Assembly (NCBI GenBank): GCA_041660545.1
Contig: JBAZWE010000005.1
Location: forward strand, 1-54,562
Reading direction: 5' to 3'
DNA: 54,562 nucleotides
Source of the DNA: Thermoleophilia bacterium
Lineage (GTDB): Bacteria; Actinomycetota; Thermoleophilia; BMS3ABIN01
Shown: in pieces, positions 24,484 to 47,178 of the stretch
Numbering within the stretch: position 1 is the stretch's first letter
Layout of the letters: each line of letters starts with the position of its first letter
Notes under the pieces: model-generated
What the model was told of the DNA's origin: nothing
What the model saw: only the letters and a program-made list of their open reading frames with translations
Databases searched by the model: none
Made by a program: the position numbers and the translations under genes

Positions 24484-26419
24484 AGCAACTCCCCATTATC
24501 GCGCTATTCTTCGGGTTCGAACCGCAACGGGCCGTGAGAAACGCTATCAGGGCCAGAGGGAAGAACCACGGTATATACAGGTAGAACCAGTGGGTCTGGA
24601 CGATCTGAAACCCCAGGATCAGAGACGCTGATATCGCCGCGACCTGCACCATGTTTTTTCGAAACGGCCAGAAGTATGATCCCAAGGATAAAGCTACCAG
24701 CAGATACTGGCCTATGCGCTGCGCACCCGCAAGCCGCTCGGGATATTGCCCCCATATGCTGAATGGAGAATCACGCCCGATCTGCCACCTGATCGTTCTC
24801 TCCCAGAACAGGCCGAAAGTCCCGTCGCCCATGAAAATCACCAGCAGAGTAGATGCTATCGCCAGCAAGAAACCCGATACGAAAAGTGTACGCCTCCACC
24901 AGCCACGCATCGCCCTCGGGAATGAGGCCCATGCGGGACCCAGCATGGCAGGAAAGAATTTGATCTGCGCGGCAAAACCGAGCAACACGCCCGCTAAAGG
25001 CGCTGATTGCAGAAAAACAAATCCCCAGATAATGAACGCGGCGACAATGGCGTCATTGACATTGCAGTTTAGCACATAAGTGGTATATGGATAGGCTGCC
25101 CATCCATAGGCAAGAGCAAGGCCGAGCTTGTTGGCAAACGGGCGTCCACGGGCCAGGCACCTGCCGGCTGTATACATGCCGGCGACGGCAAGCATATCGA
25201 AAAAGATAGCGGCGGCATGAGCTGCGGGCAGATCGTCCCATTCACCCGACCAGGGAAGAACCTTTTCGAATGGTACGTACACAAGGTAATTCATGGGACC
25301 GTACGTATCACCGTTACCATCATCGGCAGGCATGTTCCCGTAAGGGGTAGTGCCTTCGAGTATCCGGTGAGCGCCGATGACGCCCGAGTAGCCGACATCG
25401 ACTACATTAGAGTCTGCGATATTGAGCACTATCCGAAAGAGGAGCAAAGACGCCAGCCCGATCAACAGGATGGTTGAATTGAAGTTGATGTGGGGTTCAC
25501 GCGTGACACCAGTTTCGATAGTGTCGCTATTTTCGCCAAGAGATCCGGACGCCGGAGTCCCACGGCCTGAAGAACGGCGCCAGCCAATCCATCCGAGACG
25601 TAAAAAGAGATAGACCAGTGGCGGATAAGCCAGCGGGACGGATTTGAATATCTCGCCCTGATTGAAAAAATAATGCGATACGGTGAAGGCGAGCAGCATG
25701 ACAAGATCGAGGTGAAATATTCGCAATGGCCTGCGTATATCCACGAAGGGGACCAGGAAAAGTAGGCATAGGGGCATCCAGATATATGGTTCGTTAACTA
25801 TTCGTCCGAACGCGCCTTTGTAACCGCGGGCCATCTGCCATGCTACCTGGGGGCCGACTCTCACTTCGTTTACGGAGCCCGACGCGTCATCGACAAGAAC
25901 CTCTGCTACTTCGTCGGACGCGGAAAATATTTTTACTGTCCAGACCGAATCGGTTCCCAGACTGGCGCTTCTGGTGATCTCCTCCCGATCTTTGGTTTCA
26001 CTCTCCACCTCAGGCTGGCTGCTGGCCACATCGATGGCATCATTTTCAGTTGTCGCCGGCAGAACCTCGAACCATGCCTCTCCATTGATGTCGCTGGAGA
26101 TGATATTTCCGTTCAGGTCGTCGATGACGACCGAGATCAGCTTGCGATCGTTATAAGGGTTGGCCCAGGAGATGTTCCAGCGTCTCAGAGTATGGTCATA
26201 ATTTGCGTGGCGCTCGAGCTCGGGATGCTTTTCCAGGGCCATCGAGACGTTCTGATCGGCCATGGCCAGATGCTTGGCTTCCTGTTCGCTTAAGTTAGAT
26301 TCAAGCTGCGCTACAGCCGGCGAGACACCATGATTAAGTGAAAACAGCAACGCAAGGATAAAAAGGGAAATGAAGAGGCAGGATTTCCTGACCGGGGATA
26401 CCGGCGGAATCAATTGCAA
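24467..26419 (-). CDS. Large GT-C/DUF2029-like membrane protein with an N-terminal extracytoplasmic domain (two PepSY-like repeats)
   Basis: Signal/anchor helix, about 170-aa soluble region containing ..ISVVIDDLNGNIIS.. and ..EVLVDDASGSVNEV.., then about 11 TM helices with a ..TYGPMNYLVYVPFE.. loop. Confidence 0.6.
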   Translation of the reverse strand: MQLIPPVSPVRKSCLFISLFILALLFSLNHGVSPAVAQLESNLSEQEAKHLAMADQNVSMALEKHPELERHANYDHTLRRWNISWANPYNDRKLISVVIDDLNGNIISSDINGEAWFEVLPATTENDAIDVASSQPEVESETKDREEITRSASLGTDSVWTVKIFSASDEVAEVLVDDASGSVNEVRVGPQVAWQMARGYKGAFGRIVNEPYIWMPLCLLFLVPFVDIRRPLRIFHLDLVMLLAFTVSHYFFNQGEIFKSVPLAYPPLVYLFLRLGWIGWRRSSGRGTPASGSLGENSDTIETGVTREPHINFNSTILLIGLASLLLFRIVLNIADSNVVDVGYSGVIGAHRILEGTTPYGNMPADDGNGDTYGPMNYLVYVPFEKVLPWSGEWDDLPAAHAAAIFFDMLAVAGMYTAGRCLARGRPFANKLGLALAYGWAAYPYTTYVLNCNVNDAIVAAFIIWGFVFLQSAPLAGVLLGFAAQIKFFPAMLGPAWASFPRAMRGWWRRTLFVSGFLLAIASTLLVIFMGDGTFGLFWERTIRWQIGRDSPFSIWGQYPERLAGAQRIGQYLLVALSLGSYFWPFRKNMVQVAAISASLILGFQIVQTHWFYLYIPWFFPLALIAFLTARCGSNPKNSAIMGSCFVQTA

Positions 26420-33109: not shown

Positions 33110-33538
33110 ATGTATGCAAAGATACTTGTAGCAACGGATGGTTCAAAAAACGCAGTCATGGCCGTAGAGAGCGCGGCCGAAGTGGCGCGCCTGGCAGGGT
33201 CGACCGAGGTTCTTGTCGTTCATGTATGCCCAGCATGCACAGCCGACCTGGACCCGGATGACAAGAACCGTGAGCTGGCCGAAGTCATAGTCCAGGATGC
33301 CGGCAAGGTGATCACCGAAGCCGGGATTCCTGTTCGTACACGGGTGGAAATCGACGCGTCTCCGGATCTGACCGGCACTGCCATCGCTGATATCGCAAAA
33401 GAGGAAGACGTCGATCTGATTGTGCTGGGAAGCCGCGGACTGAGTGAATTCAAGGGCATGTTGCTCGGAAGTGTAAGCAACAAGGTGCTACAGAAGTCTC
33501 ATTGCCCGGTCCTGGTGATCAAAGATGAAGAGGAGTAG
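33110..33538 (+). CDS. Universal stress protein (UspA family)
   Basis: 142 aa with ..ILVATDGS.., ..DLIVLGSRG.., ..GSVSNKVL... AGAGGAGG SD. Lies 56 nt after ileS. Confidence 0.9.
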   Translation: MYAKILVATDGSKNAVMAVESAAEVARLAGSTEVLVVHVCPACTADLDPDDKNRELAEVIVQDAGKVITEAGIPVRTRVEIDASPDLTGTAIADIAKEEDVDLIVLGSRGLSEFKGMLLGSVSNKVLQKSHCPVLVIKDEEE

Positions 33539-33940: not shown

Positions 33941-34657
33941 ATGAAACAAATCTTATCCAAATTTATGATATGCCTGTCGCTTGTCAGCTTGACGTTTATT
34001 TCCGCAGCCGGCTGCACTGATGACGACAAGCCTGCCGAGGTAGCTGTCCCAACCAGGACGGCAACAACCGGCACAACGACTTCTACACGTCCCGTGCAAA
34101 CAGGAATCGTTCTCGACCCCAACCTGCAAAGTATTACCGGTATGCCCTCCCCTGAGGAGATGATAAGTTTGATCGCCCTGCAGGGAAAAGTGGCTTATCC
34201 GGTACAGGTTCCAACACAGCTACCATCAGGATATCGTCTTGATACCGAGCTGACCGGTTCAAGTAGTGCTTCCGCCAAGGATCCCGTGGGCTACTACAGC
34301 TACAGGTATTCCGATCCAGGAAATGAAAGCCGCACATTGACCTTCAACCAGAGTCATGCAAACAGCAAGCCCCTGTCCGGATACTACCTTACCGAGACTG
34401 AGATCAATGGCGTGGCCTATCAGGTTTACTGGCACAAGACGAGAGAATATCTGCCGGCTGGAGATCCGGTCAAATCCGACACAGTCGGTGATGCGGAAGT
34501 CTTTGTCGTCATCTGGAAAGGCGAGTTCACCGACAGAGCCGGGAAAACGCAGGAGCTCTGGTACAGCATGTCCACGGGCACCTGGACTGGTCACGGATGG
34601 GGTGACGTGAAAGCCATACTTGCAGGAATGAAACCGCTTTCTGGTGTCGGGACTTAA
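33941..34657 (+). CDS. Hypothetical lipoprotein
   Basis: Signal peptide with lipobox ISAAGC followed by a Thr/Pro-rich linker. No catalytic motif recognised. Confidence 0.6.
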   Translation: MKQILSKFMICLSLVSLTFISAAGCTDDDKPAEVAVPTRTATTGTTTSTRPVQTGIVLDPNLQSITGMPSPEEMISLIALQGKVAYPVQVPTQLPSGYRLDTELTGSSSASAKDPVGYYSYRYSDPGNESRTLTFNQSHANSKPLSGYYLTETEINGVAYQVYWHKTREYLPAGDPVKSDTVGDAEVFVVIWKGEFTDRAGKTQELWYSMSTGTWTGHGWGDVKAILAGMKPLSGVGT

Positions 34658-34674
34658 GTTTCAAACACGTTAAT

Positions 34675-34703
34675 AAAAAAGAGGCGATCATTTCAATCGC
34701 CTC
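34675..34703 (-). terminator. Rho-independent terminator ending the long minus-strand array (after the dehydrogenase gene)
   Basis: Stem GAGGCGAT (34681-34688) / ATCGCCTC (34696-34703) with a 7-nt loop, followed on the minus strand by TTTTTT (34675-34680). Confidence 0.65.
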
Positions 34704-34729
34704 CAGTTGAAATTAAATCAGCCTGTGAG

Positions 34730-35731
34730 TTATTCCATCGTCGAGATTATCGCGTCAGCCATCTCGGAAGTGCCAGCGGTTCCACCCAGGTCGTAAGTTA
34801 CGGTTTTTCCTTCGCCAATGACGGTGCGTACGGATTTCATCACACGGTCCGCTGCCTCATTTTCCCCCAGATGCCTTAACATCAAAACGGCGGACAGGAT
34901 GGTTGCCGTTGCATTGGCCTTGTTCTTCCCCGCATATTTGGGAGCACTGCCGTGAACCGGCTCGAAGACGGCCATGGTATCGCCGATATTAGCTCCAGGC
35001 GCCACACCTAGTCCGCCCACCAGCCCGGCGCACAGATCCGAGACGATGTCACCATACAGATTAGGAAGCACAAGGACATCGTAGAGTTCCGGCTTCTGCA
35101 CAAGCTGCATGCACATGTTGTCCACGATACGGTCTTCGAACTCAATATCACTGTAATCCTGGGCCACATGCCGGACCGATTCAAGAAAAAGGCCATCGCT
35201 GCATTTCATGATGTTGGCCTTATGCACGGCCGTTACTTTGTGACGCCCTTCTCTGCGGGCGTATTCAAAAGCGAAGCGCGCTACACGCTCTGAGGCGCTC
35301 CGGGTGATGATCTTGATACTCTCGGCGGCATCCGGTCCCACCATGTGTTCTATGCCCGCATAGAGGTCCTCAGTGTTCTCTCTGACGATCACGAGGTCTA
35401 TATCCTCGTAGCGGGACTGGACTCCGGGGATGCTAAAAGCGGGACGCAGATTTACATAAAGGTCCAGCGTCTGCCTCAATGTAACATTGACACTTCGAAA
35501 ACCGCTTCCCACCGGTGTTGTAACAGGACCCTTCAAGGCGACGCGCGTATCCCTTATCGAGGTCAGCACGTTATCGGGTAGTGGAGTTCCATACTCTGCC
35601 ATCGCATCAAGGCCAGCATCCACCACCAACCATTCGATCGCAACACCGGAAGCATCCACGACACGCCTGGCTGCCTCCGTAATCTCTGGTCCGATACCAT
35701 CACCGGGAATCAACGTTACTCTGTGAGCCAT
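34730..35731 (-). CDS. Isocitrate / homoisocitrate dehydrogenase (beta-decarboxylating dehydrogenase family, NAD-IDH-like)
   Basis: ..[10 protein letters not shown].., ..[32 protein letters not shown].., ..[10 protein letters not shown]... ATG 35731 (AAGGGAG 5 nt upstream) is preferred over ATG 35749. Confidence 0.85.
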
Positions 35732-35808
35732 GCCATCTCCCTTTTTCATTTAGGCGAATGTCACACCCGCCAGCAAAATCAAAAATTCAAGCGACGCGAG
35801 TTTCGCGC

Positions 35809-36312
35809 CTATGTTTCCAGGTGAAAATCTCCATACTTCTTAAAATGCTCGACGAGCCCGCCATCGCCCAGTATTTTTACCATCACCGGCGGCAGCGGCT
35901 CGAATGCAAGTGTTTTGTCACGTGTCACGTTTCGGACAGTCCCCGCTTCCAGATCGACCTCCAGCTCGTCTCCTTCTTCAATACCCGATGTGTCGATCTC
36001 AAGCACCGGCAATCCTACATTTATCGAGTTACGGAAAAAGATGCGTGCGAATGATTGGGCAAGGACCGCGTTGACTCCCGCGATCTTGATGATGCGTGGC
36101 GCGTGCTCACGGCTGGATCCCAGCCCGAAATTCCTGCCTGCGACCACAAAATCCCCGGGTTGCATCTTCGATGCAAATTCAGGATTCGCATCTTCAAGCA
36201 CATGCTTTGCCAGTTCCGGCAGATCCGTGCGCAGGTGGAAATATCTCCCCGGCGCTATGTGGTCGGTGGATATGCTGTCTCCGAATTTCCAGGCTTTGCC
36301 TTTTAAAATCAT
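35809..36312 (-). CDS. Aconitase-superfamily dehydratase small subunit (LeuD/HacB-like)
   Basis: 167 aa with ..STDHIAPGRYFHLRT.. substrate loop and ..GRNFGLGSSREHA.. Confidence 0.88.
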   Translation of the reverse strand: MILKGKAWKFGDSISTDHIAPGRYFHLRTDLPELAKHVLEDANPEFASKMQPGDFVVAGRNFGLGSSREHAPRIIKIAGVNAVLAQSFARIFFRNSINVGLPVLEIDTSGIEEGDELEVDLEAGTVRNVTRDKTLAFEPLPPVMVKILGDGGLVEHFKKYGDFHLET

Positions 36313-36352
36313 TTCCTGTAGCTTCCGTTTTCAGATTTTAGCCTCTGGTTCA

Positions 36353-37612
36353 TCAGGCTAGAAATTCCACTCTGGGATCGACGATGTGACCGGCTATCGC
36401 GGTGGCTGCCGCAGTGGCGGGTGACCCTAAGTAAATGAGTCCCTCAACATTACCCATTCTGCCCTGGAAGTTACGGTTCTGGGTCGCAAGACAGACTTCT
36501 CCGTCGCCAAGAATACCACCATGGACGCCTACGCATGCACCGCAACCAGGACCGGTCACCAGCGCTCCAGCCTCGACAAAAACCTCCAGTAAACCCTCGC
36601 GTGCCGCTTTTAGATAAACAGATCGAGACGCAGGTGTAACGATTAACCTCGTCTCCGGATTGCGCTTGTGACCACGCAATATGTCGGCCGCTATGCGCAG
36701 ATCTTCTATCCGGCCGTTGGTGCAGGTACCGATAAATACCTGCTGTACTTTCACACCCACGGCATCGGTAGCCTTCATCGTGTTGTCTACCGTATGCGGC
36801 GCCGAAACGGTCGGCTCCAGCAGCGAAGCATCGATCTCTATCGTGCGCGCATATTCGGCGCCGGCATCCGCAGTCAGCTCCCTGTAACTTTCGCCCCGGT
36901 CCTGCTCATCAAGGAATGCATGAGTAGTCTCATCGGAAGCAAAAAGTCCGGTCTTGGCTCCTGCCTCAACGGCCATGTTCGCCAGCGTAAAGCGTTCAGA
37001 CATCGTCATGGCGTCCGCGCCAGGCCCACCGAACTCCAGAGCCATATAGGTAGCTCCATCAGCCCCGATCATTCTGATCAGGTGCAGTATCAGGTCCTTG
37101 GCATAAACGCCCGGCTTGAACTCTCCGGTTATTTCCACACGCAGGGTCTCGGGAACTTTCAGCCACGTCTTGCCAGTCGCTATACCGATGCCCACGTCCG
37201 TGGAACCCATGCCGGTCGCAAAGGCAGCCAGCGCTCCCGAAGTACAGGTATGAGAATCAGCTCCGATGAGGATATCTCCAGGTGAAGCAAAACTTTCAAC
37301 CAGCCGCTGATGGCAGACCCCTTCGTTTATCTCGGAAAGGACCGCACCGGTACTGGCCGCGAATTCCCGCAGTGATATATGTGCGTTGGAAAGTTCCTTA
37401 CGAGGACTGGGAGCGGCGTGATCGATAAACAGCACGGTTTTGGCGGGATTTTGAGCCCTCACCAGATCCAGCTCTTTAAGTTGCTGGAGAGCAAGCGGCC
37501 CGGTTCCATCCTGAAGCGCTGTCACATCCACGTCGGTAACCACTATCTCGCCAGGTTTTACGTCCCGACCCACGTGGGCGGCGATTATCTTTTCGGCAAG
37601 CGTGCTAGCCAC
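36353..37612 (-). CDS. Aconitase-superfamily dehydratase large subunit (LeuC/HacA-like)
   Basis: 419 aa with FeS-ligand Cys regions (..GADSHTCTSGA.., ..GTCTNGR.., ..GCGACVG..). Start overlaps the upstream synthase gene by 8 nt. Confidence 0.9.
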   Translation of the reverse strand: MASTLAEKIIAAHVGRDVKPGEIVVTDVDVTALQDGTGPLALQQLKELDLVRAQNPAKTVLFIDHAAPSPRKELSNAHISLREFAASTGAVLSEINEGVCHQRLVESFASPGDILIGADSHTCTSGALAAFATGMGSTDVGIGIATGKTWLKVPETLRVEITGEFKPGVYAKDLILHLIRMIGADGATYMALEFGGPGADAMTMSERFTLANMAVEAGAKTGLFASDETTHAFLDEQDRGESYRELTADAGAEYARTIEIDASLLEPTVSAPHTVDNTMKATDAVGVKVQQVFIGTCTNGRIEDLRIAADILRGHKRNPETRLIVTPASRSVYLKAAREGLLEVFVEAGALVTGPGCGACVGVHGGILGDGEVCLATQNRNFQGRMGNVEGLIYLGSPATAAATAIAGHIVDPRVEFLA

Positions 37613-38816
37613 TGCTTGCCCCGTTGGCCTCCTTGTGGGCCTTGTAGTCCTTGTATATATACATCAGTTCTTTTTCGAAAAGACCTCGCTTGAGTTCTAC
37701 CGCGAGCTTTCGTGCAAGACGTAATATCTCCTGGCTTTCATCATCGTCGAGTTCGATAAGAAATTCCTTGAACTTCATCTTGATGGATTTACTGCCAGAG
37801 TGTTTCCCGATGACCAACTGCCGCTCCAGCCCGACTTCTTCAGGACTGAAGACCTCGTAATTTAAAGGATTCTTGATGACACCGTCCGCATGAATGCCTG
37901 ATTCATGGGCAAAAACGTTTGCGCCCACGATCGGTTTCCATACAGGTATGTGACGCGCGGAAGCACCCGCCACATACTCTGAAAGCTCACGAAAACGTTC
38001 CGTGTGAAGGCCCAGATTTACCTTGGAAATATATTTAAGCGCCATGACCACTTCCTCGAGGGCCGCGTTGCCAGCCCTCTCCCCCAGTCCGTTCACGGTC
38101 GTGTTCACATAGATAGCTCCGGCCTTGATGCCGGCCAGGGCGTTTGCCGTTGCCATTCCAAAATCGTTATGAGTATGCATCTCGATATCGATTTTCAGGT
38201 TCTTTTTCAAGAAAGCAATCACGTTATATGTGTCGAAAGGATCAAGTATGCCCACCGTGTCGCAAAAACGTATACGATCAGCACCCTGTTCCTGCGCCGC
38301 CTTGGCAAACCGCACCAGGAAATCAAGATCGGCGCGGGATGCGTCCTCGGCATTCACGGACACATAGACGTTATTAGCCTTCGCAAAATCAACCGCGGTT
38401 TTTATGGATTCAAGTACCCATGCGCGTGATTTTTTCAGTTTGTGCTCGATATGTATATCCGAGGCCGACATCGAGATAGCAACTGCGTTCACACCGCAAT
38501 CCAGCGAATGCTGGATGTCGCTGATGACGGCACGGTTCCAGGCCAGGATGCTTGTATTCAATCCCAGGCCGGCGATATGCTTGATCGTCTTCTTCTCATC
38601 CCCGCCCATTGCCGGTATGCCCACCTCGATCTGGTGGACGCCTACTTCATCGAGCAGCCTTGCGATACGGACCTTCTCCTGGTTGGCGAAAACGACACCC
38701 GCGGTCTGTTCGCCGTCTCGTAGCGTCGTATCGTCTATCTTGATCTTCTTCTCAGGATTGAGCACTGCTCCCTGAAGTATGAAGTTATTCAGATAATCTT
38801 CTTTTGACATATTCAT
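37605..38816 (-). CDS. HMGL-like acyl-CoA:2-oxoacid condensing enzyme (homocitrate synthase / Re-citrate synthase / short IPMS family; no LeuA regulatory domain)
   Basis: ..DTTLRDGEQ.. N-terminal motif and ..HTHNDFGMATAN.. metal site, 403 aa. Confidence 0.85.
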   Translation of the reverse strand: MNMSKEDYLNNFILQGAVLNPEKKIKIDDTTLRDGEQTAGVVFANQEKVRIARLLDEVGVHQIEVGIPAMGGDEKKTIKHIAGLGLNTSILAWNRAVISDIQHSLDCGVNAVAISMSASDIHIEHKLKKSRAWVLESIKTAVDFAKANNVYVSVNAEDASRADLDFLVRFAKAAQEQGADRIRFCDTVGILDPFDTYNVIAFLKKNLKIDIEMHTHNDFGMATANALAGIKAGAIYVNTTVNGLGERAGNAALEEVVMALKYISKVNLGLHTERFRELSEYVAGASARHIPVWKPIVGANVFAHESGIHADGVIKNPLNYEVFSPEEVGLERQLVIGKHSGSKSIKMKFKEFLIELDDDESQEILRLARKLAVELKRGLFEKELMYIYKDYKAHKEANGASSG

Positions 38817-38923
38817 AAGGTTTTGGAATCTCCCAGTAAGTTGCGGCTACGACGCAGCCGGACATAAATAATAGCTCAATATGAGGACCTGAACCAAGCC
38901 GGATGCAGCGATAGTGCCTGCAA

Positions 38924-39874
38924 TCAGTCCTTGACGGCAACCAGCATCAGAAAGGGGCTGAAGTACAACACCCTCGCCGCCCTGGCAACTTTCCGCCTGC
39001 AACCTCCAGCCGGCAGTAACCCGATCAGGGTCTCAATGCCGACCTGGTAGGTCAGATATAGACTACTCGGCCTGGGAGGCCGCATCTTGCCCGGGTAACG
39101 GATCGGCGCCCTTACCCACTTCAGGCCGGCATCCTCAAGAGCCCTGGACAGCTCGAGGTACTTATATTCCTTAAGGTGCATGCCGTGTACATGGTCGCAG
39201 CGAAACACACTGGAAATGTCAGTCGGTCCGGCATAAACGTGGGGAATGCTCAAAATGTAACGGCCTCCCGTCCGAAGGATCGATGCAACGCCATGCAAAT
39301 GATCATCAAGATCGTCCGGGTGCAGGTGTTCGATCACCTGGCTGGAAATAACGGTGTCGAAGCTTTCCGGTTCGACATAGCGCTCCAGATGAACCCCGTC
39401 GGATGCCACCCACCTGAGGTTCTGCTGTTCCTCCTGCCACTTGCCACCACGCTCGCTGGTGATCTCAGAGGCAGTGCAGTCAAACCCACGGGCTGCAAGT
39501 ATTCCGATCAGCTCACCCTTGCCAGGACCCAGCTCAAAAATTTTCGCGGGTGGATCGCCCGGTTCACCGATTACTCCCAGCCAGTCAGAAAACCGTTTTT
39601 CAGGCGGTTCCGTGGACGCGCTATCCGTAAACTGATTCAACCAGTCCAGCTCGCTATAAAGCCTGGTATAACATCGCTCGAATACTTCGCGGCGATTCCC
39701 CGGGTTAGAACAAAGCAGCTCCTCACGTAAGCCCCGCTCCAGCCGCCAGTGGCCGAGGATCATTTCCTCCGTAATCTCAGCCTCTGCCGGAATGCCATAG
39801 TTCTTTTTATAACGATCAATCAGCTCCCGTCCCCGGGGCTCATTACAGTCTGTTGCAGAGTCTGTCCTTTTCAT
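38924..39874 (-). CDS. Class I SAM-dependent methyltransferase
   Basis: Motif I ..IFELGPGKGEL.. and ..DTVISSQVIEHL... ATG 39874 starts 17 nt after the ppcA stop. The ORF-track start 39976 would overlap ppcA by 86 nt. Confidence 0.75.
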   Translation of the reverse strand: MKRTDSATDCNEPRGRELIDRYKKNYGIPAEAEITEEMILGHWRLERGLREELLCSNPGNRREVFERCYTRLYSELDWLNQFTDSASTEPPEKRFSDWLGVIGEPGDPPAKIFELGPGKGELIGILAARGFDCTASEITSERGGKWQEEQQNLRWVASDGVHLERYVEPESFDTVISSQVIEHLHPDDLDDHLHGVASILRTGGRYILSIPHVYAGPTDISSVFRCDHVHGMHLKEYKYLELSRALEDAGLKWVRAPIRYPGKMRPPRPSSLYLTYQVGIETLIGLLPAGGCRRKVARAARVLYFSPFLMLVAVKD

Positions 39875-39890
39875 ATTCAAAAAGGGGGCC

Positions 39891-41498
39891 TTACCCCAGG
39901 CTCCCCCGGATCTTTCCCAGGCGGCAAATCCACCCGGATACCAGATCCCGGTCATCATTCTCCCCGCTCCACTCATCGCTGCCCGCGGTGAACTGCCTCA
40001 TCATGGGTTGAAGTGTTTCCAGTAAGACATGATAACGGCGGTCATCTGCTGAAGACGGACCGATTCCTACACCAAGGTGCCTGGAAACCTCGTCCATGTC
40101 GGAAGATAACTGAGATATGAGAGGCTCGGGCAGGTGTTGAGATGCGGTCTCCATATTGGCGTAGCGTGCGGCCTTTGCCATGTCTGCCCTCATGCCGGGG
40201 TATAGCTGAAGCAGGCGGCTTACGGCCTCGTCCCCACCGCGCCGGGCAACTTCGGCAAGTCCTCGTCCTGTACCGATAAACTCAGGCGGTAAACCGATTG
40301 AATAGAGTGCACCGGTGAAACTGATAGCCCGGGGCAGGTTCGTGGCCCCCGTGGTTTTGATGGCGGCGATCCCTTTTGCGATTTCCTCATCGGCGATCTC
40401 TTTTGCCAGCTTGTCCGGCTGTGCCGCCGCACGCGCATAGCCCACAGCGCTCTTTCTCGCGAGGCGGTCACGCTGTCTGGGGATAAGGTCCGATAGAGCG
40501 ATGACAATTGGTAAAAGTTCGTTAAAGCTTTCGAGATATGGCCTTGAAAAAATGCCGATCAGCGATGTCAGTTCATCTCGCTGTCCGTTACCGAAAGCAA
40601 GTGGCGGCGCACCTGGTAGCAAATCACGCGCCTTCAAGGCCACCTGCCGCGCCGCTTCACTGTCACAGTCATAGCGCATGCCGGACTGCACGGTTACTGT
40701 TCTTATACCTGCGAAATCGGAAGTCAGACGTTCGAAATTGTCGAGGCTTACGTGCCCGCGAAAAGGCAGCACGCCACCGCCGAAAATCGGATATATCTTA
40801 ACGCCATGCTCATTTCCCGTAGCACAGCAATCCGAGATGGCGACCTTGACCGCGAGCACGGAGGCAACCATACCGTAAATCATCGCCGAGTCACTGCGTC
40901 CAAGCATTATCCGCAAATCATCCGCATCATAACCGGCTGTCCTGGCTCGCTTTATATACTCTGCCGTCAGGCGGCCCGCCGAGAGCAGTTCAGGCACTTC
41001 TTCTATCAGAGGAATGACCTGGACGGCATTGGGATCGCGTGAGATACCGAACTCCTTATGCCCCAGCTCCGTGACATCCTGGATGCGGCGACGCACATCC
41101 AGCAATTCCGAAGCTGTCTCCACCATAGGCACCACGACCTCCCGAATGGTGCCCCTGCTTCCTGAAGATGAAAGCTGGTAATTGGACTCGATCACGGACA
41201 TGATGGCCATCAACTGGTGAAAGACCGTCTCCTGCGTGGCGCTGGGAATTCGTGGCGTGACCGCGACATCTTCACCGGGGATCAGACCCCTCTCCGTCAA
41301 CCCCAGAGCGATCTCGGCCGTCTGGTGATAAGGGGTCAGCTTGCCCTCGTAATCGACCATTATCTCCTCAAGGCCCAGTCCGATCGGCTGCTGTGTCAAG
41401 GCGTCTATGGCTTCCCGAGGTTCATCGCGCACCGGGACGTAACGCGAGGCGCTGTCCGGATGTTGCGTCATCATCGTCGCGGGTATAAAGCGGCCCAT
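39891..41498 (-). CDS. ppcA: Archaeal-type phosphoenolpyruvate carboxylase
   Basis: 535 aa. The N-terminus ..IPATMMTQHPDSA.. and ..EIMVDYEGKLTPYHQ.. match my recollection of the PpcA family (..MSTQHPDN.., ..W.DFEGK..). It is unlike the roughly 900-aa bacterial Ppc. Confidence 0.8.
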   Translation of the reverse strand: MGRFIPATMMTQHPDSASRYVPVRDEPREAIDALTQQPIGLGLEEIMVDYEGKLTPYHQTAEIALGLTERGLIPGEDVAVTPRIPSATQETVFHQLMAIMSVIESNYQLSSSGSRGTIREVVVPMVETASELLDVRRRIQDVTELGHKEFGISRDPNAVQVIPLIEEVPELLSAGRLTAEYIKRARTAGYDADDLRIMLGRSDSAMIYGMVASVLAVKVAISDCCATGNEHGVKIYPIFGGGVLPFRGHVSLDNFERLTSDFAGIRTVTVQSGMRYDCDSEAARQVALKARDLLPGAPPLAFGNGQRDELTSLIGIFSRPYLESFNELLPIVIALSDLIPRQRDRLARKSAVGYARAAAQPDKLAKEIADEEIAKGIAAIKTTGATNLPRAISFTGALYSIGLPPEFIGTGRGLAEVARRGGDEAVSRLLQLYPGMRADMAKAARYANMETASQHLPEPLISQLSSDMDEVSRHLGVGIGPSSADDRRYHVLLETLQPMMRQFTAGSDEWSGENDDRDLVSGWICRLGKIRGSLG

Positions 41499-41502
41499 AA
41501 CC

Positions 41503-42951
41503 TTATCCAGTCAGTTTTTTCTTGAGGATCTCGTTAACTACCTGGGGATTAGCCCTGCCTTTTGTCTCTTTCATGATCTGTCCGACGAAAAATCCAAGCA
41601 CCTGCTGCTTGCCGGCGCGATACTGCTGAACCTGAGCCGGGTTGGCATCGATCACCCTGTCTGCCAATACCTCGAGTTCGGTTTCATCCGATATCTGCGT
41701 AAGTCCCTTTGTTGCCACAATATCCGCTGCCTTGGAGCCCGTGTCGCACATCTGTGCAAAAACGTCCTTACCGATGTTCTGGCTGACCTGACCGGACTTG
41801 ATCATGCCAAGCAGAACCGCCAACTCCTCAGGCGTGACCTTGCATTCAGACAGCTCCTGGCCCGTCGCGTTCAGATAACCAAGCAGCTCGCCCATTATCC
41901 AGTTACTCACTGTCTTGGCGTCATCGAGATGAGCAATCGTCTCTTCAAAGTAATCAGCCAGTTCACGGCTTGCCGTAATCACCTCCGCATTATAAGCCGA
42001 CAAGCCGAAGCCGGATATGTATCTTTGGGCACGCGCATGGGGCAGCTCAGGCATGTTGGCCCGGATTTCCTCGACGAACTCACGGGAGGCCAGGATTGGC
42101 ACAAGATCCGGTTCCGGGAAGTAGCGATAATCATGCGCCTCCTCCTTGCTCCTTAAGGCACTGATATCACCGCTTGCCACATCATAATGCACTGTCTGCT
42201 GGACGATCCGTTTTCCATCCTTCAGCAATTCGACCTGTCTGGCAATTTCCTGCTGGAGTCCCTTCTCGATATATTTGAAGCTGTTCATGTTCTTAAGCTC
42301 GGTCTTCACGCCCAGCGTGGTCTCACCCACAGGCCGAATGGAGACATTTGCGTCGCAGCGCAGCGAGCCTTCCTCCATGTTGCAGTCGGATACGTTCAGG
42401 TAGAGCAGCGTGTTCTTTAGCTTGTTCAAAAAAGCCCGGGCTACCTGAGGTGAATGAATTTCAGGCTTGGTTACTATCTCGACCAGGGGAGTGCCCGAGC
42501 GGTTGAAATCTATCATGGAGTACGTCGAACCGGCGATGCGCCCGCTCTCGCCGGCGTGGATATTCTTGGCAGTGTCTTCTTCCTGGTGAACCCTCTCGAT
42601 GCCGACACGAAATGTTTCGTTTTCCAACGTCACATCAAGATGCCCTTCCACGGCGAAAGGCTGATCGAACTGCGATATCTGATATCCCTTTGGAAGGTCG
42701 GGATAGAAATAATTCTTGCGGTGAAAGATGCTTTTTTCAGGGATGGAACAGTCAAGCGCCAGCCCGATGCGGGCAATGGAGCGAATAGCCTCGCCGTTGA
42801 TGACCGGAAGCGCTCCAGGATGCGCCAGGCATACCGGGCAGGTACGGGTGTTAGGCTCACCTCCGAACTCTACGCGGCAACCACAGAACATCTTGCTCTC
42901 GGTGGAGAGCTCCACGTGTATCTCAAGACCGATTACTGCTTCATATTCCAT
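41503..42951 (-). CDS. gatB: Asp/Glu-tRNA amidotransferase subunit B
   Basis: MEYEAVIGLEIHVEL.. N-terminus and a C-terminal YqeY-like tail, 482 aa. Confidence 0.95.
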   Translation of the reverse strand: MEYEAVIGLEIHVELSTESKMFCGCRVEFGGEPNTRTCPVCLAHPGALPVINGEAIRSIARIGLALDCSIPEKSIFHRKNYFYPDLPKGYQISQFDQPFAVEGHLDVTLENETFRVGIERVHQEEDTAKNIHAGESGRIAGSTYSMIDFNRSGTPLVEIVTKPEIHSPQVARAFLNKLKNTLLYLNVSDCNMEEGSLRCDANVSIRPVGETTLGVKTELKNMNSFKYIEKGLQQEIARQVELLKDGKRIVQQTVHYDVASGDISALRSKEEAHDYRYFPEPDLVPILASREFVEEIRANMPELPHARAQRYISGFGLSAYNAEVITASRELADYFEETIAHLDDAKTVSNWIMGELLGYLNATGQELSECKVTPEELAVLLGMIKSGQVSQNIGKDVFAQMCDTGSKAADIVATKGLTQISDETELEVLADRVIDANPAQVQQYRAGKQQVLGFFVGQIMKETKGRANPQVVNEILKKKLTG

Positions 42952-44410
42952 CCTGGTCCCGCCCCTCGATCAACGGTGAGACCTTATCAAAACCAAAGGC
43001 CAGTTCGGCGCTATATGCGGCCTGCAACAGATCCGGCGTCGTAAAAGCCTTGCCGATAATCTGAAAACCGACAGGAAGGCCGCCCGAAAGCCCGGCTGGA
43101 ATCGAGATGGCGGGAAGCCCCGCAAGGTTCACCGGAATCGTGCAAATGTCAGATTTGTACATGGTAAGCGGATCGTCCGTCTTCTCGCCCAACCCGAATG
43201 CGGTGGTCGGCGCCGTTGGTGATATCAACAGGTCGTATTCATCCAGAGCCTGCCCGAAATCCCGTACGATAAGAGTGCGCACCTTCTGCGCCTGACCATA
43301 GTAAGCATCATAATAACCGGAGGATAACGCATAAGTTCCGAGCATGATCCTGCGCTTGACCTCCTCCCCAAAACCCTGACTTCGCGTCTGCTCGTACATC
43401 TGGGTCACGTCATTTGTATCACCGGCGCGCAGTCCGAAGCGCACACCATCGAAACGGGCCAGGTTTGCGCTCGCCTCGGCCGGAGCAAGGATGTAATAAG
43501 CCGGAAGGGCATAGTCGGAGTGCGGCAGGCTGGCCTCACCGATGACAGCGCCGGCCGCTTTAAGCTTTTCTACCGCATCGTTAAAGACGGTCATGACCCC
43601 CGGATCGATTCCCTCACCAACCAGTTCCTTTACGATTCCCATGCGAATTCCTGAAAGATCACGCTTCACCGGCATTTTCATTTCCGCGGGATGAGCGACC
43701 GAGGTCGAATCAAGTGGATCTTTTCCCACAAGATACCGCATCATCAAAGCCGCATCCATGACATTCTTTGTGATAGGGCCGACCTGATCGAATGAAGATG
43801 CAAAAGCTATAAGCCCATAGCGCGAAACGCTTCCATATGTGGGTTTTAAGCCGACAACGCCACAGAACGCGGCTGGCTGTCTTATGGATCCGCCGGTATC
43901 TGAACCAAGAGCCCAGATTGCCTCGCCGGCTGCCACCGCCGCTGCGGATCCGCCACTGGAACCGCCCGGCACCCTGCCCAGATCCCACGGATTGCGCGTC
44001 GGTCCATAAGCCGAGTTCTCGGTTGAGGAACCCATCGCGAACTCGTCCATGTTCGTTTTTCCCAGGGTGACGATGTCGGCTTCCATCATCTGCCTGACAC
44101 AGGTAGCCGTATAGATGGGTTTGAAATTCTCAAGCATCCTCGAGGCACATGTCGTTGTTATACCTTCCGTGCAGAGAACATCCTTGATAGCTGTTGGTAG
44201 CCCTGCCAGAGGCGCCCTCTCACCCTTTTTGGCATCGATGGCCGCGGCTTCATGGCGAGCCTCGGCGCCGGTGACCTTAAGGTATGCGGACACTTCACTG
44301 TCGTGACTTGAGATCTGAGAAAGGTAGGCGTCGGTCAACTCAAGCGAAGAAACAGTGCCTTCCTCCATATGCTTTAGCGCCTCAATGGCTGTAAGTCGCA
44401 GCAGATTCAT
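42941..44410 (-). CDS. gatA: Asp/Glu-tRNA amidotransferase subunit A (amidase)
   Basis: Amidase signature ..GGSSGGSAAAVA.. Start at ATG 44410, just after the gatC stop. The ORF-track start 44515 overlaps gatC. Confidence 0.95.
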   Translation of the reverse strand: MNLLRLTAIEALKHMEEGTVSSLELTDAYLSQISSHDSEVSAYLKVTGAEARHEAAAIDAKKGERAPLAGLPTAIKDVLCTEGITTTCASRMLENFKPIYTATCVRQMMEADIVTLGKTNMDEFAMGSSTENSAYGPTRNPWDLGRVPGGSSGGSAAAVAAGEAIWALGSDTGGSIRQPAAFCGVVGLKPTYGSVSRYGLIAFASSFDQVGPITKNVMDAALMMRYLVGKDPLDSTSVAHPAEMKMPVKRDLSGIRMGIVKELVGEGIDPGVMTVFNDAVEKLKAAGAVIGEASLPHSDYALPAYYILAPAEASANLARFDGVRFGLRAGDTNDVTQMYEQTRSQGFGEEVKRRIMLGTYALSSGYYDAYYGQAQKVRTLIVRDFGQALDEYDLLISPTAPTTAFGLGEKTDDPLTMYKSDICTIPVNLAGLPAISIPAGLSGGLPVGFQIIGKAFTTPDLLQAAYSAELAFGFDKVSPLIEGRDQDGI

Positions 44411-44417
44411 CGTTATC

Positions 44418-44705
44418 TCAGCCCTCCAGAATAGCCGGCACCCGGAAGGCGTCATTTTCGACGGAAGGCCCGTTTGCCAGCGCGTCTTCCCTTGAGACAC
44501 CCGGTCGCGAAACATCCTCCCGGAAGATATTGGAGAGTTTCAAGACATGTGAGGTAGGCTCGACTTCAGTGAGGTCGAGTTCAGAAATCTTGTCAATATG
44601 GTTGAGTATCGAGGAAAGCTGGCCGGAATACCTTTCAAGCTCATCTTCTTCCACTCTCAGCCTTGCAAGCCTGGCTACATACTTTACGTCTTCGTGTGAA
44701 ACCAA
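44418..44705 (-). CDS. gatC: Asp/Glu-tRNA amidotransferase subunit C
   Basis: 95 aa with ..VKYVARLARLRVEEDELE.. TTG start preceded by AGAGGAG. Confidence 0.9.
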   Translation of the reverse strand: MVSHEDVKYVARLARLRVEEDELERYSGQLSSILNHIDKISELDLTEVEPTSHVLKLSNIFREDVSRPGVSREDALANGPSVENDAFRVPAILEG

Positions 44706-44785
44706 TTCCTTTTAGCTCCTCTTGTCGGTTCTCTTTATATTCCGATATGCGGTAACTGGAAATCCTATCACAGGAATTATGCTTC

Positions 44786-47017
44786 TTATCCCCCGTCCGG
44801 GGATTTCTTGTCAGCTGCATCGACTGTTTTGTCTGAATCGATATGGAAATCCGGCAACCATTCAAGCCAGCCGGGCAAATACCAGTTTTTATCGCCGAGT
44901 AGCTCCATTGCAGCCGGAACCAGCACTGTTCGTACGATGGTGGCGTCCATCAAGACCGCCACTGCGAGGCCGAAGCCAATCTGCTGGAAAATTGTCAGGC
45001 TTCCACTGGCAAAGCTGCCGAAAACCGCAACCATGATAATCGCCGCGCCGGTAATTATGGCTCCCGTCGATCTTAAGCCGAACGCTACCGACTCACTGTT
45101 GTCTCCTGTCTGCATATAGCGTTCCCTTATCCGTGAGAGAAGGAAGACATGATAGTCCATCGAGAGGCCGAATAGTATCGAGAAAAGGAACAGGGGCAGC
45201 CATGTTTCCACGGTACTGACCTGTTGAAATCCAAAAAGGCTGGCCCCGACCCCCTCCTGAAAAACCAGGACGACCAGGCCGTAAGCCGCACCCACTGAGA
45301 GCAGGTTCATGATGATGGCCTTCAGCGGAACGATCAGAGAATGGAAAACGGCGGTCAGTAATACAAAGCTCAGTCCGAGAACGAAAGCAAAAACAATCGG
45401 ACGATAGCTGTCTGTCATGTCGACAAGATCCACATTGATTGCCGCCTCACCGCCGACATAAACCTTCGCATCGACACCATTAAATGAGCGCGGTATATAT
45501 TGGTTCCTCAGCTTATTGATCACATTCTTGCTCTCTTCGCTGTTCGGATCCCCCGATACCGGCGCCGACAGGAGCGCCAGATCAGCGTTCTGATTCGGAG
45601 TAAGAACCTGTTCGCCGAAGAAAGACTTGTCCTGAGCCAGAAAAGACTTCAGCTTCCGGACTGCCTGCTGCACCTCGGGTGACCCGACATCACCATTGAT
45701 CACGATCTCGACCGGCGAGATCAAACCGGATGAGAACTCACTCTCCAGCATTTTGAAGGCTTTTTTCGACTGTAGTTTGTCCGGCAAAGTACTCACGCCC
45801 GAAGATCCCGTCCTGATGCTGAAGTAGGGAATGGTGCAGGCGCTCAGCAGTCCAACCGCCAGCAAAAGACTGATAATCGGTCGTCTCATGACCGTTTGAG
45901 CAACCCGGTCCCAAAAACCTCCCCTTTTGCCGACAACTCCGACGTCACGCCTTCTTATGAAAGGAATACGTAAGGCGTTTATCCTGTCTCCCAACAGGCC
46001 AAGTATGGCCGGAAGCAGAGTCAGCGCGGCAAGAACGGATATTGCTACCACATAAATGGCGCCCGCGCCCAGGCTTGTGAAGACCGTTGAGGGAATAACC
46101 ATCATCCCGGAAAGCGCCAGCAATACCATCATGCCGCTGAATAGTACCGCCCTGCTGGCAGTAGCTCCCGTAATGGTGATGGCATCTATTTTATCGTGTC
46201 CGCGCAAACGTTCCTCGCGGTATCTTGAAACGATAAAGAGTGAGTAATCAATGCCCACCGCAAGCCCCATCATGGTTATCATGTTGACCACAAAAAACTC
46301 GTAAGTGAAGAACTGACCGGTTATTGCCGTGATGCCGATCGCCACGACGATCGATGCTACTGCAAGTGCGATGGGGATTCCTGCAGCGACAACAGCACCA
46401 AAGACGATAAGCAGGATCAGTAAAGCCGCTATGGCGCCGATAGTTTCGCTTACCTTGAGATCCTGACTGGCGATCTGCTGAAAGTCCCTGCCGATGCTCG
46501 ATTTACCAGTCTCGAGAACCTCGAATCCATCCGTAATATTGTGTTGCTCAACCACGCCAAGCAACTTCGCAACATTGCTGTCAGCAGTATCTAACGACCC
46601 TGCCATGACAAAAGGCATAAGAGTCGTATGACGGTTATCCGATACCATCGAGTTGTCAGGGACCATGTAATAGTTGACCCCGCTCTCTATTACATCTGTG
46701 CCGAGAAGAATAACGTCGCCATACAAGCTTTGAACAGCAGCCCTGAACCGGGGATCATCCACAGTGAACTCATCAGAGTGCACTATTACGATCTCACTGA
46801 CCTTCCTGGGTCCCCTCAGTCTTTCTTCCAGAAGAATCTTGGCCTGTCTGGAATCTGGCATATTGGTAAAATCGGCTTCGGTTGTTACCGCCGATCCAAG
46901 AAATTTTGATGAGAAAAAGGCTGCGCCCACGATGATTACAGACCATATGGCAATTGTAATCCACGGCCGGCGCGAACACAGGCAGGCCAGATATTCTGTT
47001 AACGGTTTTCGCTTCAT
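44786..47017 (-). CDS. MMPL-family (RND superfamily) membrane transporter
   Basis: Two 6-TM bundles, each followed by a soluble loop, with duplicated ..GIDYSLF../..SMDYHVFLLSRIRE.. motifs. Start is ambiguous (47017, 47056 or 47059). Confidence 0.85.
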   Translation of the reverse strand: MKRKPLTEYLACLCSRRPWITIAIWSVIIVGAAFFSSKFLGSAVTTEADFTNMPDSRQAKILLEERLRGPRKVSEIVIVHSDEFTVDDPRFRAAVQSLYGDVILLGTDVIESGVNYYMVPDNSMVSDNRHTTLMPFVMAGSLDTADSNVAKLLGVVEQHNITDGFEVLETGKSSIGRDFQQIASQDLKVSETIGAIAALLILLIVFGAVVAAGIPIALAVASIVVAIGITAITGQFFTYEFFVVNMITMMGLAVGIDYSLFIVSRYREERLRGHDKIDAITITGATASRAVLFSGMMVLLALSGMMVIPSTVFTSLGAGAIYVVAISVLAALTLLPAILGLLGDRINALRIPFIRRRDVGVVGKRGGFWDRVAQTVMRRPIISLLLAVGLLSACTIPYFSIRTGSSGVSTLPDKLQSKKAFKMLESEFSSGLISPVEIVINGDVGSPEVQQAVRKLKSFLAQDKSFFGEQVLTPNQNADLALLSAPVSGDPNSEESKNVINKLRNQYIPRSFNGVDAKVYVGGEAAINVDLVDMTDSYRPIVFAFVLGLSFVLLTAVFHSLIVPLKAIIMNLLSVGAAYGLVVLVFQEGVGASLFGFQQVSTVETWLPLFLFSILFGLSMDYHVFLLSRIRERYMQTGDNSESVAFGLRSTGAIITGAAIIMVAVFGSFASGSLTIFQQIGFGLAVAVLMDATIVRTVLVPAAMELLGDKNWYLPGWLEWLPDFHIDSDKTVDAADKKSPDGG

Positions 47018-47178
47018 GGCAAGCTGGCTACTCCAGTCCGTGCCGGGCTCACACATCATCCTTTATGCAGACGCGACAAGAAGATAAGAAAGGCCGTAGA
47101 AACAAAAAAACGGCACAGCCGTATCAAGATTAGAATATTAGCATACGGGGTGCGTTATTTTCTGCGGTATATGAGGTG

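Follow-up and report, generated by a model that had tools for sequence, protein, structure and literature searches.

How could an anaerobic actinobacterium from groundwater, uncultured and with no match to Si-citrate synthase in its draft genome, make 2-oxoglutarate, and from it glutamate? The question is raised by a row of genes at positions 34730-41498 of a 54,562-nucleotide stretch of contig JBAZWE010000005.1 of a Thermoleophilia bacterium (assembly GCA_041660545.1), the whole of which we refer to as the window. On its minus strand, genes for an archaeal-type phosphoenolpyruvate (PEP) carboxylase (PEPC), a methyltransferase, an HMGL-like synthase, LeuC- and LeuD-like dehydratase subunits and a dehydrogenase resembling isocitrate dehydrogenase (IDH) follow one another behind gatCAB. 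With good confidence, we read this array as encoding a Re-citrate synthase/aconitase-like/IDH route from PEP to 2-oxoglutarate, that is, an anaplerotic step together with the oxidative branch of a split tricarboxylic acid (TCA) cycle. The same reading had been put forward in a preliminary description of the sequence, and it is supported by the orthology of the synthase, by the gene inventory of the genome and by the linkage to PEPC.

In the proposed route, PEPC would convert PEP and bicarbonate to oxaloacetate, and the NifV-like HMGL enzyme, acting as a Re-face citrate synthase (EC 2.3.3.3), would condense oxaloacetate with acetyl-CoA to citrate. The LeuC/LeuD-like Fe-S dehydratase would serve as aconitase, the short IDH would turn isocitrate into 2-oxoglutarate, and GOGAT-type enzymes would then lead to glutamate. 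Acetyl-CoA and PEP could be supplied by the Wood-Ljungdahl pathway, pyruvate:ferredoxin oxidoreductase and PPDK/PPS-type enzymes. The case is built on observed gene identities, orthology, synteny, inventory and distribution; the substrate specificities of synthase, dehydratase and dehydrogenase, the Re-face stereochemistry and the direction of flux are predictions from sequence.

The gene row and the identity of the synthase

The genes and signals of the locus are arranged as follows, in the direction of transcription.

44418-44705, minus strand: gatC, Asp/Glu-tRNA amidotransferase, NCBIfam match above cut-off
42941-44515, minus strand: gatA, Asp/Glu-tRNA amidotransferase, NCBIfam match above cut-off
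41503-42951, minus strand: gatB, Asp/Glu-tRNA amidotransferase, NCBIfam match above cut-off
39891-41498, minus strand: ppcA, archaeal-type PEP carboxylase, 535 aa (TIGR02751, PF14010)
38903-39890, minus strand: insertion of about 1 kb that carries the methyltransferase gene
38924-39874, minus strand: class I S-adenosylmethionine methyltransferase, 316 aa (PF13489, PF08241)
38817-38902, minus strand: synthase leader with TATTAT box, hairpin and ribosome-binding site
37605-38816, minus strand: HMGL-like synthase, putative Re-citrate synthase type, 403 aa (PF00682 and PF22617)
36353-37612, minus strand: LeuC-like large subunit, proposed aconitase, 419 aa (NF001614, 565 bits)
35809-36312, minus strand: LeuD-like small subunit, 167 aa (TIGR02087, 198 bits), loop PGRYFHLRT
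34730-35749, minus strand: Iso_dh-family dehydrogenase, proposed IDH, 339 aa (NF006529, TIGR00175)
34680-34704, minus strand: intrinsic terminator, 11-bp stem and 3-nt loop, then TTTTTTATTAA

In agreement with the preliminary description, the six genes from ppcA to the dehydrogenase all lie on the minus strand with small gaps or overlaps: from gatB onwards the distances are +4, +16, +107, -8, +40 and +59 nt, the first being that between gatB and the PEPC gene, and the LeuC-like gene overlapping the synthase stop by 8 nt. The gatCAB genes said to precede the array (41503-44705) were confirmed by matches to TIGR00135, TIGR00132 and NF004014, all above cut-off. The closing terminator, earlier placed at 34675-34703, is a strong one with an 11-bp stem at 34680-34704, followed by TTTTTTATT. 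Both peptides quoted in that description were found as well, the 21-residue one in the dehydrogenase, at residue 72, and PGRYFHLRT in the small subunit, at residue 21.

The synthase consists of an HMGL-like domain (PF00682, 273 bits) and an HCS_D2 domain (PF22617, 88 bits), with no other domain and no LeuA regulatory domain. It fails the LeuA and CimA equivalogs (citramalate synthase models 192, against a cut-off of 450) and stays below the cut-off of TIGR02146, the alpha-aminoadipate (AAA)-type homocitrate synthase model (321 bits, cut-off 413.6). It passes TIGR02660, the model of the NifV homocitrate synthase, with 526.5 bits against a cut-off of 462.9, so that this model evidently captures a citrate-synthase clade too. 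A precedent is HM1_2993 of Heliomicrobium modesticaldum, an annotated homocitrate synthase whose gene was deleted and complemented and which behaves as a Re-citrate synthase, the deletion abolishing the citrate-synthase-dependent growth phenotype (PMC12016533). The homocitrate synthase annotation of such enzymes is a known trap (PMC12016533).

Using the peptide KMGLKASIMGWN of HM1_2993 as a degenerate pattern, we retrieved its orthologs from Heliobacterium chlorum and H. mobile, to which the window synthase is 66% identical over 374 aa; identity to proteins of Caldanaerobacter and Thermoanaerobacterium is 67-68%. HM1_2993 itself is 68.6% identical to Teth514_0415 of Thermoanaerobacter X514 and 61.9% to AksA of Clostridioides difficile, as compared with 46.2% to its own NifV, 36.2% to the Dehalococcoides enzyme and about 27-28% to the Clostridium kluyveri and Syntrophus enzymes (PMC12016533). 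The preliminary description had invoked the Re-citrate synthases of C. kluyveri, Syntrophus and Dehalococcoides; of these, the C. kluyveri and Syntrophus enzymes belong to a different clade, at about 27-28% identity to this type, and are not the relevant examples. We infer that the window protein is a Re-citrate synthase of the HM1_2993/Teth514_0415/AksA (NifV-like) type, with predicted Re-face specificity.

Phylogeny placed the synthase with this type, away from nif-linked NifV and from LeuA. In maximum-likelihood trees, which were built without HM1_2993, CKL_0973, SYN_02536, CAI83711, AksA and Teth514_0415 (their printed sequences were compared by eye only), it falls on a short branch together with orthologs whose neighbours are aconitase/IDH genes, the heliobacterial ones included. 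A nif-linked pair is long-branched and lies beside or within the ortholog group, and LeuA is clearly separate. In a second tree, the nif-linked pair was not cleanly apart from the TCA-linked clade; monophyly of the TCA-linked rows versus NifV cost 1.3 log-likelihood units (approximately unbiased test, p = 0.36) and is thus neither rejected nor resolved. The PDB holds no solved Re-citrate synthase, and the nearest chains, a Sulfolobus homocitrate synthase (232 bits) and a Neisseria isopropylmalate synthase (216 bits), do not discriminate.

A role as NifV, in which the enzyme would supply homocitrate for the FeMo-cofactor of nitrogenase, would account for the equivalog model being passed, and NifV is the nearest paralogous clade. 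However, nitrogenase-family PF00148 has no match in the 95%-complete genome, the neighbours of the synthase are gatCAB, ppcA, dehydratase and IDH genes, and the dehydratase and dehydrogenase would be left without a function. Moreover, two genomes hold an ortholog together with nitrogenase-family genes, those of Acididesulfobacillus and Desulfosporosinus, and their genuine nif-linked paralogs are the separate, long-branched pair, 42% and 49% (the latter over a partial sequence) identical to the window synthase. We consider a NifV role extremely unlikely.

The Re-citrate synthase assignment is in line with the surroundings of the orthologs. Among 80 loci encoding synthase orthologs of 62-97% identity, most carry LeuC-like, LeuD-like and IDH-like genes behind the synthase, an order that recurs in Actinomycetota, Bacillota, Dictyoglomota and Chloroflexota. 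Caldanaerobacter and Thermoanaerobacterium have an aconitate hydratase, fused and 640 aa long, as the partner of the orthologous synthase (NF005558, 1021 bits in Caldanaerobacter, cut-off 612). A gene for an IDH of about 400 aa follows the ortholog in Thermincola and at three other Bacillota loci, the Thermincola protein scoring as a canonical NADP-IDH (NF005425, 701 bits, cut-off 490).

Distribution across genomes points the same way. Among 301 Actinomycetota genomes, with orthologs defined by at least 59% identity, PF00285 was missing from 47 of the 51 that bear an ortholog and present in 222 of the 250 that do not, a two-by-two count that overstates the support, since related genomes are not independent, and is to be read as a pattern rather than a statistic. 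Four unpublished genomes (G001, G048, G088 and G120) are PF00285-positive and ortholog-negative, and the pattern is independent of them. Of the 28 genomes that have neither gene, at least 14 carry a 426-470-aa HMGL open reading frame (ORF) of about 40% identity, and the three of these proteins that were retrieved start with ..IDVTNRDGVQT.., as does CAI83711, the Re-citrate synthase of Dehalococcoides; these N-termini, in families without either type, indicate a second Re-citrate synthase type in Actinomycetota.

Loci L107, L108 and L109 (genomes G061, G016 and G104), from families that lack both Si-citrate synthase and the window type, encode a 444-463-aa HMGL protein whose N-terminus, ..IDVTNRDGVQTSRLGL.., is very similar to that of the Re-citrate synthase of Dehalococcoides CBDB1. 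In one Actinomycetota family (f20), all 20 sampled genomes have two tandem synthase copies (for instance L084, 8001-10467, and contig C5 of G043, 22874-25217), about 60% and about 52-57% identical to the window synthase, the second copy being long-branched.

Dehydratase, dehydrogenase and gene inventory

In the large subunit, the Fe-S cysteines C297 (GTCTNG) and C357 and C360 (GCGAC) are intact, and these motifs align with GSCTNG and SCSAC of 4NQY, the large subunit of Methanocaldococcus jannaschii isopropylmalate isomerase (IPMI). Its nearest relatives are methanogen IPMI, with the M. jannaschii isopropylmalate/citramalate isomerase closest (415 bits), and homoaconitase (373 bits), as against 150 bits for mitochondrial aconitase. 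As the large subunit is not nearest to canonical aconitase, the role proposed for the enzyme is drawn from its context and from the substrate loop of the small subunit. This loop, RYFHLRT, carries an Arg and is longer than its counterparts in known structures, PYLRTT in homoaconitase (2PKP) and RYLVYT in IPMI (3VBA), which bear out the contrast between YLRT in methanogen homoaconitases and YLVY in isopropylmalate isomerases that the preliminary description had drawn. The small subunit scores 196 bits on HacB2_Meth. The Arg fails to separate citrate from homocitrate.

Three kinds of loop were found in dehydratases next to orthologous synthases: RYFHLRT in the clade of the window, KYKFKT in Bacillota, Coriobacteriia and Dictyoglomota, and LPLRSNI in the fused aconitase. 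All three hold a basic residue at the equivalent place, and one synthase type thus partners three kinds of dehydratase. The LeuCD-type partners fall into two sequence types, GR[YLF]FHLR[TS] (for example L014, L022, L026 and L030) and G[KR][YH]KFK[TS] (L013, L016-L018, L020, L021 and L066). Their large subunits are about 50% identical, which suggests replacement or independent recruitment. Taken together, we regard the window enzyme as a putative aconitase.

Does the row instead belong to branched-chain amino acid synthesis? Automatic annotation would read leuA-leuC-leuD-leuB, and the closeness of the large subunit to the M. jannaschii isomerase would suit a second branched-chain or citramalate pathway, with a short CimA/LeuA and isoenzymes of IPMI and isopropylmalate dehydrogenase (IPMDH). 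However, when the organism's own genome was searched by tblastn with the window proteins, the only other aconitase-family set and Iso_dh gene came from contig C104, where they are arranged as leuC-leuD-leuB, with the beginning of an HMGL synthase gene after them at the contig end; a true LeuA is encoded on C41 (NF002086, 613 bits, cut-off 532) and an extra HMGL fragment on C74. Thus, a leucine set is already present. In addition, the Arg in the loop of the small subunit stands in the place of Val-Tyr in IPMI and of Asn-Thr in the own LeuD, whose loop reads RYLNTH; the S-x-N loop of the dehydrogenase differs from that of the own LeuB; and the citramalate synthase models are failed by the wide margin given above. 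A branched-chain role is very unlikely, as the preliminary description had argued from the loop.

For the dehydrogenase, the best NCBIfam models are those of IDH, NF006529 (445 bits, cut-off 510) and TIGR00175 (426.5 bits, cut-off 432.4), both scores lying just below cut-off. Against structures, it scores 410 bits with the NAD-IDH 6LKY, about 346 with human IDH3 alpha and at most 273 with IPMDH; Thermus homoisocitrate dehydrogenase, at 295 bits, is a fairly near relative. Its substrate loop reads R-S-V-N-V-T-L-R, and the own LeuB has GILEQGILLK in this place. We take S-x-N to be a mark of IDH, RSVNVTLR presumably resembling the Ser113/Asn115 region of the Escherichia coli enzyme. The protein is best described as a putative isocitrate dehydrogenase of the short homodimeric, mitochondrial NAD-IDH-like kind. 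An operon of putative TCA genes in Dehalococcoides offers a parallel: this setting was the reason for assaying its IDH, and the activity was verified (PMC4720418).

The assembly (1.98 Mb in 128 contigs, 94.9% complete) was searched for other ways to the same product. No match was found in it to Si-citrate synthase (PF00285), to PF00148 or to LysW, nor was any AcnA/B or second IDH found beyond the cluster and the leuCDB set; sucC (succinyl-CoA synthetase beta) and glutamate dehydrogenase (GDH) were likewise not found. Present are LysA of the diaminopimelate (DAP) route, GOGAT-domain genes, an AcsB/CdhC gene of the Wood-Ljungdahl pathway, PPDK/PPS-type genes (PPDK_N), PorCAB (pyruvate:ferredoxin oxidoreductase) and, on C107, a pyruvate carboxylase B subunit. 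This inventory, one of the checks suggested in the preliminary description, points to the Re-citrate synthase, aconitase and IDH reading, as do the other suggested checks that could be run. With no other 2-oxoglutarate genes seen in a 95% draft, the cluster is the sole visible route to 2-oxoglutarate. Contig C19 of the same genome (G000) encodes a two-subunit 2-oxoacid:acceptor oxidoreductase (L088, 886-3448; TIGR03710, 668 bits), which could in principle make or consume 2-oxoglutarate. It adjoins a sulfhydrogenase-like hydrogenase subunit, and its substrate bears on the further oxidation of 2-oxoglutarate. Reductive operation of the branch was considered and appears unlikely; neither sucC nor PF00285, a citrate-synthase-fold domain that ATP-citrate lyase presumably also carries, was found in the genome.

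The inventory also bears on the nearest functional alternative, a homocitrate route in which 2-oxoglutarate and acetyl-CoA would be condensed and then processed by homoaconitase and homoisocitrate dehydrogenase to 2-oxoadipate, for lysine synthesis via aminoadipate or for 2-oxoacid elongation. The passed TIGR02660 model, the Arg loop shared with 2PKP together with the HacB2_Meth score, and the kinship of the dehydrogenase to the Thermus enzyme would all fit such a route. Against it, the synthase falls short of TIGR02146, the dehydrogenase is closer to an IDH structure than to homoisocitrate dehydrogenase (410 versus 295 bits), and orthologous synthases adjoin canonical aconitase and NADP-IDH genes. 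The genome has LysA of the DAP route and gave no match to LysW; within the limits of a 95% draft, homocitrate would find no visible consumer. The source of the 2-oxoglutarate substrate would also become invisible, there being no Si-citrate synthase, aconitase, other IDH or sucC in the inventory, and the PEPC linkage suits oxaloacetate as substrate, not 2-oxoglutarate. The homocitrate alternative is disfavoured, and we regard it as improbable.

PEPC linkage, the methyltransferase insertion and gatCAB

The ppcA product matches TIGR02751 with 387.7 bits over residues 5-535 (cut-off 146) and PF14010 with 385 bits. Its linkage to the synthase, pointed out in the preliminary description, extends across the host family: of the 19 other family genomes with both genes, 17, covering 8 genera, have PEPC on the strand of the synthase and 49-250 nt upstream of it. 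PEPC is therefore a stable, family-level part of the array. The synthase occurs without PEPC in the host-family genomes G324 and G325 and in the family member L009, where gatB abuts the synthase.

The methyltransferase gene has a different history. The match to L007 and L008, relatives at 97% identity, breaks off at 39891, the PEPC stop, and picks up again at 38902/38903, which marks an insertion of about 1 kb in the spacer between ppcA and the synthase. No homolog was found in 30 relatives (E ≤ 1e-10), two genomes of the same genus included, nor in the 80 related loci. An assembly artefact can be discounted: contigs built independently from run X1, the probable source run, span both junctions, and run X2, from sediment in another study, yielded fragments of the methyltransferase gene together with the same 3' junction. 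The gene had been listed as a member of the array; it is not conserved and was seen in this genome alone among the reference genomes searched. It is a late accessory insertion, no member of the pathway and without an inferred role in the route. Its product matches Pfam methyltransferase domains only and no specific NCBIfam model; the N-terminal part of about 95 residues, ahead of the first match to a methyltransferase domain, has no family match. A function as trans-aconitate methyltransferase, trans-aconitate being a by-product of aconitase, was considered and remains an idea, with no specific NCBIfam match and no counterpart in any relative searched.

Beyond the insertion, the synthase has a leader of its own (38817-38902), about 81-85% identical to those of L007 and L008. 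It contains a TATTAT box, a 7-bp hairpin with a GTC loop (38844-38860) and a GGGAGA ribosome-binding site (38829-38834). The hairpin lies about 10 nt upstream of the ribosome-binding site and, judged by eye, its pairing is kept through base changes in three sequences of the genus. No consensus RNA structure was obtained for the leader across the wider family and it has no Rfam match, nor was there one anywhere across 34400-45000.

The spacer ahead of the synthase is also where gatCAB joins the row. gatB ends no more than 600 nt upstream of an orthologous synthase in 22 of the 68 loci with enough upstream sequence, a junction that spans Actinomycetota and many Bacillota (for example L009, L018, L040, L053, L054, L063, L066 and L067). 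At least 8 further loci have a single gene between the two, PEPC in five of them and a peptidase-like, SPFH or START-like gene in others. No description of the gatCAB-synthase junction was found in the papers searched, though no search was aimed at it. The conserved junction ties genes for tRNA-dependent Gln/Asn formation to those for 2-oxoglutarate synthesis.

Since the gatB-synthase spacer is both a conserved junction and an insertion site, the case for co-regulation of PEPC with the genes downstream is tempered, and the co-transcription of ppcA with them stays a proposal. The same enzymes could be made from two transcripts, one with ppcA (and the methyltransferase gene) read together with gatCAB or by itself, the other running from synthase to IDH under its own promoter, PEPC then being a mere neighbour. 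This would agree with the genus-conserved leader and its TATTAT box and hairpin, with a weak hairpin followed by CTTTTT that overlaps the ppcA stop, with the variety of genes held by the spacer, peptidase-like, SPFH and START-like elsewhere and a methyltransferase gene here, and with L009, G324 and G325, which have the synthase and no PEPC. On the other side stand the position and strand of PEPC, kept in 17 of 19 genomes, and the stretch from gatC to 34704, in which no strong terminator was found. Two transcripts are a possibility to be taken seriously, although we do not favour it. A bolder proposal is that gatCAB-ppcA-reCS-acnLS-icd forms a single co-regulated unit for the supply of glutamate and of Gln/Asn-tRNA, with the YFHLRT-loop LeuCD enzyme as an independently recruited two-subunit aconitase lineage distinct from the KYKFKT type; we offer it as speculative and rather doubtful.

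Outside the row, an MmpL-family RND transporter gene lies upstream of gatC (44786-47059, minus strand). Beyond the terminator are a universal stress protein gene (33110-33538, plus strand) and a 238-aa ORF without an assigned family (33941-34657), both of which keep their position in L007-L011.

Relation to known systems and meaning for the host family

HM1_2993, Teth514_0415 and AksA share an orthologous group, a length of about 400 aa and the HMGL-like plus HCS_D2 architecture without regulatory domain with the window synthase. Like it, HM1_2993 is labelled homocitrate synthase by automatic models and comes from a host without Si-citrate synthase. Unlike HM1_2993, described as an isolated gene and tested by deletion (PMC12016533), the window gene sits in a gatCAB-ppcA-synthase-dehydratase-IDH row of an uncultured Actinomycetota family. 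The characterised Re-citrate synthase CAI83711 of Dehalococcoides CBDB1, named as the biochemically characterised representative (Marco-Urrea 2011, cited in PMC4720418 and PMC12016533), shares the proposed function and superfamily with the window enzyme. However, it belongs to another clade (36% identical to HM1_2993), is longer, at about 445 aa, and begins DVTNRDGVQ where the window type has DTTLRDGEQ; its type occurs in other Actinomycetota families that have neither Si-citrate synthase nor the window type.

Synthase-aconitase-IDH rows are not peculiar to this family: aksA-acnB-icd of C. difficile and CAC0970-0972 of C. acetobutylicum are such rows. Like the window, these rows and the Dehalococcoides IDH operon (PMC4720418) would provide a three-step 2-oxoglutarate supply without a full TCA cycle. 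The Clostridium rows have a synthase of the C. kluyveri type (about 27% identical) or the fused 640-aa aconitase, whereas the window has a split LeuC/LeuD dehydratase with the YFHLRT loop, a 339-aa IDH and a PEPC gene in front. For this dehydratase, the methanogen homoaconitase (MJ1003/MJ1271; 2PKP) and isomerase (MJ0499/MJ1277; 3VBA, 4KP1) offer the closest comparison, with the same two-subunit architecture, size and Fe-S cysteines at 37-48% similarity. The loop Arg is shared with the homoaconitase, but the window loop is longer (RYFHLRT versus PYLRT), and its partners are a citrate-synthase-type enzyme and an IDH, with no homocitrate-consuming pathway found in the genome.

Several of these points weigh against a PEP-to-2-oxoglutarate route. 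At the level of the enzymes, the synthase passes a NifV model and in the second tree is not cleanly parted from the nif-linked pair, the large subunit is nearest to IPMI and homoaconitase, no characterised two-subunit aconitase of LeuC/LeuD type was found in the literature searched, and homoisocitrate dehydrogenase is fairly near to the dehydrogenase. As for context, 5% of the genome is missing from an assembly of 128 contigs, the C19 oxidoreductase offers another conceivable source or sink of 2-oxoglutarate, the distribution count is inflated by relatedness, the spacer takes up unrelated genes in other lineages, so that position by itself is weak evidence for PEPC co-regulation, and the synthase has its own conserved leader. 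We nevertheless favour the Re-citrate synthase route, which is likely on the balance of orthology, synteny and inventory.

The pathway itself is already known from other anaerobes, the PEPC gene in the row being what is unusual about it. Particular to this case are the family-wide PEPC, the split dehydratase with the YFHLRT loop and the strain-specific methyltransferase insertion; what the locus would add is a family-wide coupling of PEPC to the oxidative TCA branch in one row and an uncharacterised kind of two-subunit aconitase. If the speculative co-regulated unit were true, 2-oxoglutarate production would be tied to the tRNA-dependent amidation route. The nearest relatives of the host are groundwater and subsurface metagenome-assembled genomes labelled Thermoleophilia or Actinomycetota. 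Automatic annotation would give such organisms a homocitrate synthase and leuCDB, and with them no visible glutamate route and a spurious pathway for lysine or for the nitrogenase cofactor. Read as PEPC, Re-citrate synthase, aconitase and IDH, the row would close this gap in metabolic reconstructions of a widespread subsurface family of anaerobic actinobacteria with the Wood-Ljungdahl pathway and sulfate activation.

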